DNA from: Escherichia coli
GTDB lineage: Bacteria > Pseudomonadota > Gammaproteobacteria > Enterobacterales > Enterobacteriaceae
DNA length: 31,040 nucleotides
Direction: 5' to 3' (one strand)
Assembly (NCBI RefSeq): GCF_030013205.1
Contig: NZ_CP122651.1
This document shows positions 6,001-9,000 of this stretch, piece by piece. How positions within the stretch are numbered: position 1 is the first letter of the stretch; every line of letters starts with the position of its first letter. Position numbers: made by a program.

Positions 6001-9000
6001 GGTCAACAGAATAAAGAGCTGCTCCGCAAATAAGGGATTGTCTGTAGAAATCTCCCCGCATTTGTACTGGGAGAGAGTCTATTGTTTGTTGTGTCAGGTT
6101 GTCCTGCGGATAAAGTGCCGGGTGCAGATATGCCACAACTTTCTTTCTTTTTTTTGGATCACTGCTTTCCATTACGCATGCACCATTGCTTTTACCAATG
6201 CAAACTGAGGTTCATCTACCTTGTTCACTTTCAGATTCGGGAAGTATTGCTTTATGTGAGGGTAAATAAGCTCGGCTCCCCCGCCTGTGAGGTAGATTCG
6301 GTTCATTCCTGAGAATGTTGAAATTTCCTGCCTGATGCTTTCTGCCAGAGATTTCACCTCACTGTCTATTACATGAGTAATATTTTTTATTTCAGCCACA
6401 TCATTTATTAATGTCTGGAGATATTCATTATCATGCCTGTTTTTTATTAACTCATCAGCAATAAAATAATTGCAGGGTGTGGAGGCTTTTGTTAGTGCAT
6501 TCATGACGGTATGAGTTATGCGGGATGTCCCGATTTCTGAATAGCCACGGATTTCAGAAATGCCTTCAAATGCACCGAGAATTAAACCACAATCCAGAGT
6601 GGTTCCTCCAAGATCGATAATCAGGCTGCGTTCAAGTTTGTTTACTTTATCTTTTTTTAGTGATTCAAATGCAGCCGGCAAAGATTCAGGCATTACATTA
6701 ACTTTTTTAATTTTAAATGTTTCCCCTTTATTCAGAGATATCTCACGGAGAACATTTGCCTTTTTTCTTTCTATTCTTTCTTCATTTGGTTGATTGTCAT
6801 TATCAAAGAATTCGGTTACAGGTAATGTTACTGTCAGTTCTACATCCTGTGGCTGAAGGCCGGATGTCAGCAGTGCATGATGTATGGCAAGCAGATTGGT
6901 GGTGCTGTATTGATAACTGACATGTGTTGTACCTATGACAGCAGTGCTGCCCAAATCATAGGTGTATTTTTTTCCATCCACGACGTAATTGTAAACTTTG
7001 CCGGCATTAAACAGTCCCGGGTTCCAGCCTTCTTTAAAGCTGTTTCCTGACAGACTGGTTCTTACCTCGCCATCTTCAAGCCAGGCCAGTTTTACGTTAG
7101 TTGAACCATCATCGCATGATACTTTTAGCATTCTTTTTGCCTCGTTTTGAGTTTGTGTTTGTCTCAAATTGAGCATCTTTTATGTCGATGCATCTTTTTG
7201 AGTTTTTGTTATTTCTTATTGTGTCTCATTTTGGGTTAATGTCAAGTAATGTGACTCTTTTAGAGTCTCCTTGTGTTCTTGCTGTAACTCAATTTGAGTC
7301 GTTACTGGTTTCTCATTTTGCGTCACAAACTGAGACGGAAACTACTTAACCAGGCCGTGCCGGCACGTTAACCGGGCTGCATCCGATGCAAGTGTGTCGC
7401 TGTCGCCGGCCTCCTCACCCGGTCACGTTTCGTCGTTCCTCCTCCACGCGCTGCGGCTTCGGGGCCGCACCTGCATTCGTATGCGGTCGCCCGGTTACAG
7501 GTGCGGCACGGCCTGATGGAGGCCGCATGTGAGAGGAGAATTCCCATGCCAAACTGGTGCTCAAATCGTATGCATTTTTCTGGTGAACCGGCACAGATTG
7601 CTGAGATTAAACGACTGGCCAGCGGTGCAGTCACACCGTTTTATCGCCGCGCCACAAATGAAGGTATTCAGCTGTTTCTGGCCGGAAGTGCCGGACTTCT
7701 GCAGACCACTGAAGATGTGCAGTTTGAACCGTGCCCCGGAGTGACGGCTGCCGGACGTGGTGTTGTATCGCCGGAGAATATCGCGTTCACCCGCTGGCTG
7801 ACACACCTGCAGAACGGTGTGCTACTGGATGAACAAAACTGCCTGATGCTGCATGAACTCTGGCTGCAGAGTGGTACTGGCCAGCGTCGCTGGGAAGGAT
7901 TACCGGATGAGGTCAGGGAAACCATCACCGTGCATTTCACCGCCAAAAGAGGTGACTGGTGTGGCTTCTGGAGTAACGAGGATGTATCGGTGTGGTGGAA
8001 CCGTCTGTGTGACAATGTACTGCCGGAAAAAACCATGCCGTTTGACCTGCTGACGGTTCTGCCCACCCGCCTGGATGTTGAAGTGAATGGCTTTAACGGT
8101 GGTGTTCTGAACGGTGTTCCTTCTGCGTATCACTGGTATACGGAACAGTATGGCGTGAAGTGGCCTGTGGGGTATGAGGTGAATATCAGCAGTCAGGGAG
8201 ACAACTTCATTCAGGTTGATTTCGACACGCCGTGGTGTCAGCCGGAAAGCGACGTTATTGCAGAATTAAGCCGCCGTTTCGGCTGCACACTGGAGCACTG
8301 GTATGCCGAGCAGGGCTGCAATTTCTGTGGCTGGCAGCGATATGAGCGTGGAGAGCTTGTTGATGTCCTGTGGGGGGAACTGGAATGGTCTTCCCCGACA
8401 GATGACGATGAGCTGCCGGAAGTCACCGGACCTGCGTGGATTGTCGACAAGGTGGCGCATTACGGTGGATGAATTCTGACGGAGACGGGCGGGCAACCGC
8501 CCGTTTCTTTTCCGACAAAGGATGTCGCCGTGCTCCTCTTTTTACTGCGCCGGCTGACGCGGCGCGGCAGGAACGCTGCCTGTGGTCAGTGTCCCGCGTC
8601 CGGCCGGGCACGGGACGGGCGCTTTTACCGCTTCCGGCTGGCGTTGGTGACAGTGTACGCCAGCCCGTCGCCCTTTTCTGATGAACGCCCTTCAAGCCGC
8701 TTTCGCGGCATATCCTCGCCGTCAAAAAGACGACGGCTGCGGTATTCCACGGTCGGCCTGACCCGTTACCGGACGCGGTGAACAGCCCACAGGCAGCGGG
8801 GAACGGGCACCACAGGGGTGCCCTCCCGGTGCCCTCTGTAAGAGAAGGAGTGCTGTTATGTCCCGTTTTATCCAGGGTGACTGCGTGCGTGTTATGGCCA
8901 CGTTTCCGGGCAATGCTGTCGATTTCATCCTCACCGACCCGCCGTATCTCGTCGGTTTCCGTGACCGTTCCGGGCGCACCATCGCCGGCGATAAAACCGA

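Follow-up and report, generated by a model that had tools for sequence, protein, structure and literature searches.

At the minus-strand origins of the filamentous phages M13 and f1, RNA polymerase recognises a promoter-like hairpin of single-stranded DNA (ssDNA) and makes a primer. In conjugative plasmids, ssDNA promoters decide gene expression in the first minutes after entry into the recipient. The genes concerned act in anti-restriction, SOS inhibition and protective methylation, and they influence the establishment of resistance plasmids in new hosts.

The class 1 promoters include Frpo/ssiD (Masai & Arai 1997), Frpo1 and Frpo2 (Couturier et al. 2023, PMC9849209) and ssi1-3 of ColIb-P9. 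Here the transferred strand forms, within the leading region, a long hairpin that imitates duplex promoter DNA. It works only in the single-stranded state, and the early genes under its control serve anti-defence or establishment. Its boxes are located on the 3' arm, which is read from loop to base, and mismatches occur around the -10. Class 2 promoters are found upstream of klcA/ardB-like genes and of ardA, and are represented in F by ssp2. These are unbranched hairpins with TTGCAT-N15-TAAGAT on the non-template arm.

The hairpin upstream of the methylase gene M.EcoGIX was named a class 3 ssDNA promoter by Wen et al. (2025, NAR 53:gkaf1299, PMC12672017). In that account, M.EcoGIX of pESBL is zygotically induced in RNA-seq, the start site was mapped by 5' RACE in agreement with prediction, and class 3 is defined as distinct from Frpo and reported as conserved in F. 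In F, ssp3 served as a working ssDNA promoter with strength equal to that of ssp2 and with no roadblock activity (bioRxiv 10.64898/2026.01.09.698686).

The spacer upstream of the methylase gene

The window analysed here is a stretch of 31,040 nucleotides of the Escherichia coli plasmid ETEC4079 unnamed3 (contig NZ_CP122651.1). The spacer that separates a DUF1281 gene from a DNA methylase gene in this window (Table 1) has a G+C content of 0.65. It had been described in an earlier note, made from the sequence alone, as a GC-rich, structured and non-coding region at 8512-8857 (346 bp), and that description is borne out. The full intergenic stretch begins further left, at 8473, and the note's start at 8512 comes directly behind a terminator-like hairpin. 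The hairpin has the stem ACGGGCGG/CCGCCCGT (8485-8492/8497-8504), the loop GCAA and the tail TTCTTTT (8505-8511), and would be expected to insulate the methylase gene from read-through. It was recognised by eye, and a simple terminator scan did not list it. A scan for duplex sigma-70 promoters returned no sigma-70-like candidate upstream of the methylase gene, which is consistent with a promoter inactive as duplex DNA. The methylase protein shares 99% identity with that of F and 90% with M.EcoGIX of pESBL.

Table 1. Coordinates of the spacer, its neighbours and the parts of the element (arms are named for the transferred strand)
Feature	Position	Strand	Remarks
Full intergenic stretch	8473-8857		385 bp; between DUF1281 ORF stop and methylase ATG
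DUF1281 ORF	7501..8472		upstream neighbour of the spacer
Terminator-like hairpin with T-run, end of DUF1281 gene	8485..8511	+	read from sequence; inverted-repeat search
Left-end box, AAGGATGTCGC-N3-GCTCCTC-TTTTTAC	8518..8545		homology among methylase-linked copies starts here
Basal stem, 3' arm, non-template role	8574..8614	-	pairs with 8762-8798; many compensatory changes
Candidate -10 box GACACT, non-template arm	8588..8593	-	predicted; in a conserved mismatched internal loop
Bulge, non-template arm	8604..8609	-	CCGGGC; sequence and length variable; one base shorter in pESBL
Left apical arm, side arm of the three-way junction	8617..8690	-	compensatory changes, helices 10-12
Right apical arm	8692..8761	-	nearly invariant; 3' strand ends TTGA (complement of 8692-8695)
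Basal stem, 5' arm, template arm	8762..8798	-	contiguous with the methylase template
Predicted transcription start	8789..8792	+	about 7 nt after the candidate -10
Small hairpin in predicted 5' leader	8805..8823		7-bp stem 8805-8811/8817-8823, loop ACAGG
Ribosome-binding site and start codon	8845..8860	+	AAGGAG 8845-8850; methylase start codon 8858-8860
N6/N4 DNA methylase	8858..9541	+	PF01555; NF010253, 497 bits; presumably driven by the element

Comparison with described ssDNA promoters

Positions 8518-8857 are very probably a copy of the class 3 ssDNA promoter of IncF and IncI leading regions. Over 341 nt, the segment has 96.2% identity with the site directly upstream of M.EcoGIX in pESBL-EA11 (NC_018659.1; positions 4442-4781 of the locus compared) and 97.1% with its counterpart in F (NC_002483.1; positions 8826-9166 of the locus compared), with a single matching site in each plasmid. 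The element is one already described by Wen et al. (PMC12672017). It is probably also the ssp3 of F, following the logic of a naming in which ssp1 is Frpo and ssp2 is the klcA/ardB promoter. Comparison with F and IncI plasmids was decisive here, and bears out the suggestion in the earlier note of a second single-strand promoter; a known element does occupy the interval, and it is one that confirms this reading.

The order DUF1281-spacer-methylase is identical in F and pESBL, where the methylase gene points towards oriT. The copy in the window shares with those sites the position between the two genes, the orientation to the transferred strand and a fold beyond -75 kcal/mol. It differs by a few substitutions, mostly in the bulge and loops and none of them structural, and by residing on a plasmid that has neither oriT nor a relaxase. 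With oriT deleted, the identity of the transferred strand in the window is assigned by homology, as the minus strand.

Conservation of the element equals or exceeds that of the methylase coding sequence, as is seen against pESBL, where the coding sequences are 87.9% identical. The element is found in at least 5000 sequenced enterobacterial plasmids. The upstream gene varies (DUF1281, hsdM, stbB, parG, umuD or SRAP) while the element stays with the methylase gene, and in the homologues compared it always lies immediately 5' of a ribosome-binding site and start codon, oriented so as to transcribe the gene. A search of viral contigs with the methylase gave no match. For other downstream ORFs, Pfam searches with 50-aa N-terminal fragments were uninformative except for a weak DUF1281 match.

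The logic of class 1 is the same, from the duplex-mimicking hairpin of the transferred strand to the arrangement of the boxes, whereas the architecture differs; the class 1 promoter is a long, simple hairpin whose apex is rich in A+T, and the class 3 element is G+C-rich and branched, with a candidate -35 that spans a junction. With a word size of 7, blastn found no match between the element and the Frpo1 and Frpo2 regions of F or the ssi regions of pESBL, although these regions do match each other, and the published Frpo sequences bear no resemblance to it. Class 2 shares the role in the leading region. Its hairpins 5' of klcA or ardA are homologous to the element only in the left-end box of about 28 nt (AAGGAnGTCGC...GCTCCnC...TTTAC), the body being unrelated, and ssp2 differs as a replication roadblock, which ssp3 is reported not to be. 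In class 3 elements, about 340 nt separate the box common to the two classes from the methylase ATG downstream; in the class 2 promoters of F and pESBL, its distance to klcA/ardA is about 360 nt. Class 3 copies in front of other genes do not have the box. The likeness to M13 and f1 is one of principle, in that the host sigma-70 polymerase is offered a folded single strand in place of -35/-10 duplex DNA, while the phage origins yield a short primer rather than an mRNA, belong to another type of replicon and have no sequence relationship to the element.

Fold stability and covariation

Using DNA parameters, the fold of the spacer 8473-8857 reaches -111 kcal/mol for the plus strand (z -6.6) and -112.4 kcal/mol for the minus strand (z -8.0), and on neither strand was any of 100 shuffled sequences as good. 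In a scan of the 31 kb with 300-nt windows, 8551-8850 was the most stable of 1025 on both strands (-87.9 kcal/mol on the plus strand, -86.5 on the minus strand), and it was also the largest outlier after correction for G+C. Wen et al. require less than -75 kcal/mol per 300 nt with DNA parameters for an ssDNA promoter fold (PMC12672017), and the minus-strand value lies beyond this threshold. The spacer contains a large inverted repeat in which 8574-8603 pairs with 8769-8798.

In the predicted fold of the transferred minus strand, a long stem at the base leads into a three-way junction from which two apical arms extend, and a small hairpin stands in the 5' leader. The template strand continues unbroken from helix 6 into helix 7. 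Of the two hairpins quoted in the earlier note, ggcaccacaggggtgcc exists in the leader but at 8806-8822, one base away from the 8807..8823 that had been given, and ggcgttggtgacagtgtacgccagcc is present at 8640-8665, as part of a perfect 9-bp stem (8636-8644/8657-8665) within the left apical arm.

The transferred-strand fold is backed by covariation across 27 homologues. With nine sequences, 96.4% of the cells were paired, compared with 36-45% when the partners were slid, and 21 pairs had double changes, compared with 0-4. With all 27, the paired fraction was 97.0% against 32-47%, and there were 106 double-change cells against at most 15, a count that none of 500 shuffles reached. In the small leader hairpin, three to four pairs have compensatory changes (for example, GC in 16 sequences and AU in 11). 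Wobble pairs are distributed asymmetrically, with 62 G.T cells on the minus strand and 6 A.C cells, and for the consensus fold the minus strand has an advantage of about 10 kcal/mol over the plus strand.

Candidate promoter boxes

A mismatched internal loop in the non-template arm contains two bases, A at -11 (complement of 8592) and T at -7 (complement of 8588), that are invariant in the 27 homologues though unpaired. In the fold model, such a loop would fit a pre-melted -10 box with the sequence GACACT. The matching -35 seems to be TTGACC, made up of the TTGA at the end of the right apical arm stacked across the junction on CC, the complement of 8613-8614. A scan for -35/-10 combinations found this one alone, and solely on the strand that spans the junction. 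A side arm interrupts the candidate -35, and the spacer measures 18-19 nt on the non-template strand but about 15-17 base-pair steps in the helix, a geometry unusual for sigma-70. The predicted start corresponds to approximately 54,713-54,716 of NC_018659.1 and 54,097-54,100 of NC_002483.1. Confidence in the class 3 boxes is limited because calibration of the same simple rules on Frpo1 and Frpo2 yielded no clean canonical hexamers. The opposite polarity, in which the promoter would run from the base towards the loop and the 5' arm would be non-template, offered no box candidates and was set aside; the published Frpo-like boxes are on the 3' arm.

On this model, the strand that enters the recipient would be the minus strand of the window, which is the template for the methylase. 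While single-stranded, it would form a branched hairpin of about 225 nt, with the basal stem (8574-8614/8762-8798) under the three-way junction. The folded stem would mimic a duplex promoter, with a -35 built from two separated strand pieces across the junction and a -10 that is effectively pre-melted, being mismatched in every homologue, such that the host sigma-70 RNA polymerase could start near 8789-8792 before synthesis of the complementary strand. Transcription down the template arm into the gene would then give a burst of an ssDNA-specific protective methylase, until complementary-strand synthesis ironed out the hairpin and turned the promoter off.

Alternative explanations

The interval is annotated in several records as protein-coding, with the hairpins then being incidental to a GC-rich coding sequence. 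RefSeq places a CDS at 8476..8781 on the plus strand in pP136-3 (NZ_CP080226.1) and F-like records, and in ETEC4079 a CDS at 8545..8781 on the plus strand together with an "arginase" at 8423..8653 on the minus strand, and long open frames do exist on both strands. However, the annotated starts and frames disagree between nearly identical records, a 1-nt indel shifts the frame in pESBL, and the first half of the pESBL "protein" is in another frame. Homologues of 64-75% nucleotide identity keep none of the frames open, and gene callers predicted nothing in them. The ORFs called by PGAP ("hypothetical protein" or "arginase") have no Pfam or NCBIfam hits, and the substitutions follow the pairing of the helices, as compensatory changes, and not the codon positions. 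That the interval encodes a small protein is already largely refuted, and is extremely unlikely.

Could the structure act instead as RNA, either in a methylase mRNA leader transcribed from an upstream duplex promoter or in a minus-sense antisense RNA? Covariation cannot separate folded DNA from folded minus-sense RNA, with which the wobble bias is also compatible, and the fold of the plus strand is nearly as good as that of the minus strand. In the leader version, GCTCCTC at 8532-8538 could act in translational control in the manner of an anti-Shine-Dalgarno sequence, as its CTCCT is complementary to the AAGGAG ribosome-binding site. This role is disfavoured by the preference of wobble pairs for the minus strand, which speaks against any plus-sense leader, and by the class 3 copies that precede other genes, which lack the left-end box. 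Furthermore, neither strand has a sigma-70-like promoter to make such an RNA, a terminator-like hairpin lies directly upstream of the element, and the published RACE start agreed with the prediction from the ssDNA hairpin (PMC12672017). In Rfam 15 no family reached its gathering score; at permissive thresholds the sole hit, Erse, was at chance level, with 17 bits against a required 138, and was absent in the homologues. An RNA function for the structure is, on balance, quite unlikely.

A hairpin of this kind might also be mainly a site for DNA processing, whether as a priming signal for synthesis of the complementary strand, a replication roadblock or a cruciform for recombination, with promoter activity secondary or absent. 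Transcripts from Frpo do serve as primers for DNA synthesis in vitro, conversion in vivo is seeded by ssp1 promoters, synthesis of the complementary strand stalls at the class 2 hairpin ssp2, and no hairpin in the window is more stable than the element. Nevertheless, ssp3 is reported to lack roadblock activity (bioRxiv 10.64898/2026.01.09.698686), and the constant place directly 5' of a ribosome-binding site and ATG argues against a processing site. Invariant unpaired bases at -10-like positions argue for recognition by polymerase. The recombination site proposed as an option in the earlier note finds no support; neither a recombinase gene nor repeated core sites lie nearby. Priming from the transcript of the element would be compatible with a promoter rather than compete with it, and a processing site as the main function is very unlikely.

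Fate of the element in this plasmid

In ETEC4079 unnamed3, oriT, the relaxase gene and most tra genes are deleted. A junction at about 9582 joins leading-region DNA to the 3' part of traI (PF07057); it occurs in one of at least 5000 matching records, and the plasmid that carries it is typed as non-mobilizable. Transfer of the plasmid itself can therefore no longer present the class 3 promoter as ssDNA, and the copy, though intact, is most likely a recent, stranded relic that nothing can activate. For the present window the finding is ordinary, that of an intact known element in a plasmid without a transfer origin. Its recognition corrects the annotation of an element usually mis-annotated as a hypothetical protein or an "arginase", marks the methylase gene as zygotically induced, and supplies a covariation-backed structural model with specific bases to mutate.

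Wider readings

Three further readings appear to go beyond the class 3 description of Wen et al. (PMC12672017); they are possible but less likely than not. The class 3 ssDNA promoter may be built on a three-way junction, in which coaxial stacking assembles the -35 from two distant segments of the transferred strand and a 74-nt side arm is inserted in the non-template strand. The -10 in such a model may be a permanently mismatched loop with a sequence unlike that of the duplex form; this would account for the inactivity of the promoter as double-stranded DNA.

A further ssDNA promoter may lie upstream of the DUF1281 gene, where 7354-7512 forms a class-2-like hairpin, as a shortened copy. The six ssDNA promoters that Wen et al. 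name for pESBL do not include this hairpin (PMC12672017).

Lastly, class 2 and class 3 hairpins may be interchangeable promoter cassettes. Class 3 hairpins also precede DUF1281 and other genes, and many hairpin copies are bounded by the common left-end box. Some plasmids carry a class-2-like hairpin in place of class 3 before the same methylase family, and class-2-like hairpins precede the methylase in contigs of Erwinia, Scandinavium and Salmonella.

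Structure and coding content of the spacer

The spacer between the end of the DUF1281 open reading frame (8472) and the start of the methylase open reading frame (8858) is 385 bp long, with a G+C content of 65%. DNA folding of 8473-8857 gives -111 kcal/mol (z -6.6) for the plus strand and -112.4 kcal/mol (z -8.0) for the minus strand. When the whole window is scanned in sliding segments of 300 nt, none folds more stably than 8551-8850 on either strand, and this segment is also the biggest outlier once G+C is corrected for. The description of a GC-rich structured spacer in an earlier note is therefore confirmed. 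Both hairpins quoted there were found, with coordinates one base off, and they are small parts of a far bigger inverted repeat.

The same note called the interval non-coding, and this holds. PGAP places coding sequences over the spacer that differ between records (8476..8781+, 8545..8781+ and an "arginase" at 8423..8653-), none with Pfam or NCBIfam support. A 1-nt indel in the IncI1 plasmid pESBL-EA11 shifts the reading frame, no frame is preserved in homologues of 64-75% identity, and gene callers annotated nothing in the interval in those homologues. The "arginase" and "hypothetical protein" were thus rejected as genes; RefSeq/PGAP annotates them across the promoter hairpin in thousands of plasmids, apparently as artefacts of a spacer that is GC-rich and structured. 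No Rfam family was found in the spacer, the only hit being Erse at 17 bits, against a gathering score of 138, and absent in homologues.

Identity with the class 3 single-stranded DNA promoter

Copies of the spacer with 90-100% identity are carried by no fewer than 5000 plasmids, from genera that include Escherichia, Klebsiella, Salmonella and Shigella. The F plasmid has the same layout, with a hypothetical ORF followed by the methylase, as does pESBL-EA11, with DUF1281, a "hypothetical" ORF and the methylase. Over 341 nt, the element is 97.1% identical to its counterpart in F and 96.2% identical to that in pESBL, with a single site per plasmid, so that the comparison with F and an IncI plasmid proposed earlier recovers the same methylase-linked site in both. 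The methylase protein is 99% identical to that of F and 90% identical to that of pESBL, which is M.EcoGIX. Conservation of the element equals or exceeds that of the methylase coding sequence (96.2% versus 87.9% against pESBL).

Wen et al. 2025 (PMC12672017) studied NC_018659.1, the pESBL record compared here. As described there, six operons of pESBL are induced zygotically, a large ssDNA hairpin lies in front of every one of them, and all six start sites were mapped by 5' RACE. The hairpin upstream of M.EcoGIX was named class 3 and set apart from class 1 (Frpo/ssi) and class 2 (the klcA/ardA hairpins); conservation in F is stated for classes 2 and 3. In a 2026 preprint, ssp3 of F is an ssDNA promoter equal in strength to ssp2 and without roadblock activity; we infer that ssp3 is the class 3 element seen here. 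M.EcoGIX is an ssDNA-specific methylase, and Fomenkov et al. 2020 (PMC7736820) argued that a Frpo-like promoter on the entering strand must express it. In agreement with the published class definitions, the element shows no similarity to Frpo1, Frpo2 or the class 2 regions, which do match their own paralogues. The suggestion of a single-strand promoter was therefore correct, given the identity to the published class 3 sites, and the element is already known, having been published in December 2025. What is added here is a branched structure backed by covariation, candidate recognition bases, evidence for spurious ORFs and for cassette-like use of the element, and a copy stranded without oriT.

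Consensus structure and the folding strand

Divergent copies were collected from contigs encoding methylases 74-89% identical to that of the window and from a DNA-pattern scan covering one genome for each species. They were aligned as the transferred strand, the window minus strand, in the sets A3 (9 sequences) and then A5 (27 sequences). Standard pairs fill 96.4% of paired cells in A3 and 97.0% in A5, versus 36-45% and 32-47% when the 3' partners are slid by 1-3 columns. Pairs changed on both sides number 21 in A3 (0-4 when slid) and 21 in A5 (5 or fewer), and cells changed on both sides number 47 (6 or fewer) and 106 (15 or fewer). None of 500 shuffles of either alignment reaches the observed covariation score.

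Features of the spacer in window coordinates
Feature	Position	Strand	Basis or remark
Left-end box, AAGGAnGTCGC-N3-5-GCTCCnC-TTT(TT)AC	8518-8545		also F locus (L003) 11396; pESBL locus (L004) 7012, 13957
Terminator-like hairpin	8485-8492/8497-8504		loop GCAA, tail TTCTTTT; opens the spacer
Large inverted repeat	8574-8603 with 8769-8798		inverted-repeat search
Basal stem	8574-8614 with 8762-8798	-	consensus fold mapped to window
Internal loop, 8x8	8586-8593 opposite 8779-8786	-	consensus fold; inside basal stem
Bulge, 4-6 nt	8604-8609	-	consensus fold; inside basal stem
Three-way junction	above basal stem	-	consensus fold
Left apical arm	8617-8690	-	more variable; tip is the second quoted hairpin (8636-8665)
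Right apical arm	8692-8761	-	consensus fold; nearly invariant
Small hairpin	8805-8823		consensus fold; below basal stem; first quoted hairpin
Candidate -35, TTGACC	complement of 8692-8695 (TTGA) and 8613-8614 (CC)	-	junction-spanning scan
Candidate -10, GACACT	complement of 8593-8588	-	junction-spanning scan
Predicted start	about 8789-8792	+	inference; 67-nt leader
Predicted leader contents	AAGGAG at 8845-8850	+	covarying hairpin and ribosome-binding site

On the minus strand many pairs switch between Watson-Crick and G.T, and one G.T pair is unchanged in 27 of 27 sequences. Each minus-strand G.T is an A.C mismatch on the plus strand, and A3 holds 62 G.T cells versus 6 A.C cells. The minus strand also gains about 10 kcal/mol over the plus strand in the consensus fold, with RNA or DNA parameters alike. 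Both observations fit selection on the transferred DNA strand. A structure acting as a plus-sense mRNA leader is disfavoured, as it would carry the mismatches and the weaker fold, whereas a minus-sense RNA is compatible with the strand bias.

Proposed mechanism and candidate promoter boxes

In an intact plasmid the minus strand, the methylase template, would enter the recipient, and once folded it would offer duplex-like DNA to the sigma-70 polymerase. Transcription would run 3' to 5' along this strand into the methylase, until second-strand synthesis removes the fold and, with it, the promoter. These steps rest on the published behaviour of the homologue together with the established transfer polarity of F.

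Boxes were sought with at least 4/6 matches at -35, at least 3/6 at -10 with A at -11 and T at -7, and a spacer of 15-19. The contiguous minus strand holds no candidate by these rules, and the plus strand holds one, judged irrelevant. Reading the non-template strand through the junction yields exactly one candidate, TTGACC with GACACT, which may be the -35 and -10 of the folded promoter. The candidate -10 sits in the internal loop, which is mismatched in every homologue, and its A(-11) and T(-7), though unpaired, do not vary among the 27 sequences. Between the basal stem and the right apical arm the template strand has no break, which allows these helices to stack; in that arrangement the left apical arm would project on the non-template side. 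The boxes are 18-19 nt apart on the non-template strand versus about 15-17 helical steps, and a branch within the -35 box is an unusual geometry. Applied to Frpo1 and Frpo2, these rules gave no clean boxes. The duplex form has AACAGC or TACAGG at the -10 position, without the -7 T, which may explain inactivity as dsDNA; a sigma-70 scan detected no duplex promoter for the methylase.

A copy stranded without oriT

The window matches NZ_CP122646.1, the 36.5-kb plasmid "unnamed3" of porcine ETEC strain ETEC4079, an IncFIA/FII plasmid typed as non-mobilizable. sepA, a TIR-domain gene and parM/stbB lie upstream of the element region. Leading-region DNA joins the 3' part of traI at about 9582, followed by traX and finO, and the ORF at 9542-11548 fuses the start of the small post-methylase gene to the TraI C-terminal part (PF07057). 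The plasmid lacks oriT, the remainder of the leading region and the majority of the tra genes; the fusion marks their deletion and leaves the element stranded. The junction occurs in one record (NZ_CP122646.1) among at least 5000 matching PLSDB records. Conjugative plasmids, for example pP136-3, carry copies of the spacer with 100% identity, which points to a recent deletion. The CopA antisense RNA of the IncFII replicon lies beside repA at 16642-16731 (-) (Rfam RF00042, 97.8 bits).

Possible cassette-like use and related elements

Linkage to the methylase is constant, and the genes upstream of the element differ (DUF1281, hsdM, stbB, parG, umuD, SRAP). The class 3 core also lies upstream of DUF1281 genes in Citrobacter and Escherichia contigs (L016, L039, L047) and of other small ORFs in further contigs. 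Some plasmids have two cores (second copies: L034, L035, L036, L043, L044, L050): the methylase follows one of them, and DUF1281 or small unnamed ORFs follow the other, suggesting that class 3 is a reusable promoter cassette. In Erwinia, Scandinavium and Salmonella contigs, a shorter class-2-like hairpin replaces class 3 upstream of the methylase homologue (L007, L009, L013, L014, at ~2200-2500); those of L007 and L009 nearly match the candidate "Frpo* 3" (Samuel et al. 2024).

The left-end box is common to methylase-linked class 3 copies and class 2 elements. It lies 340-360 nt before the driven gene and coincides with the point at which the loci become homologous. It is absent from class 3 copies that serve other genes, which places it outside the class 3 core.

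The DUF1281 gene is itself preceded by a second GC-rich hairpin (7354-7512); as minus-strand DNA, 7290-7572 folds at -63.5 kcal/mol (z -4.2). The two arms of the hairpin can be aligned to the class 2 promoters of F and pESBL, and the apical part is missing. The class 2 non-template arm reads TTGCAT-N15-TAAGAT, whereas this hairpin has TTGCAT-N15-TAACGT. It is not among the six promoters that Wen et al. (PMC12672017) name for pESBL, and so may be a further, weaker ssDNA promoter. The DUF1281 gene probably starts at ATG 7546 (MPNWCS...), with the RBS GAGGAG, and not at 7501 or at the PGAP-annotated 7570.

A 22-mer of the right apical arm, TTCAAGCGGCTTTCGCGGCATA, matches no Rfam family in its other settings. 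It also occurs in a short repeated non-coding element (about 260-360 bp) of Firmicutes MAGs, with loci in Erysipelotrichaceae/Bulleidia MAGs (L020, L027-L030); further loci with the 22-mer are L018, L019 and L031. Its sharing with class 3 may reflect relationship or coincidence. One Firmicutes MAG carries four copies of the repeat, and in the Undibacterium contig (L037) TTCAAGCGGCTTTCGCGGCATA occurs together with its matching partner GGTATTCCACGGTCCGCTTGA.
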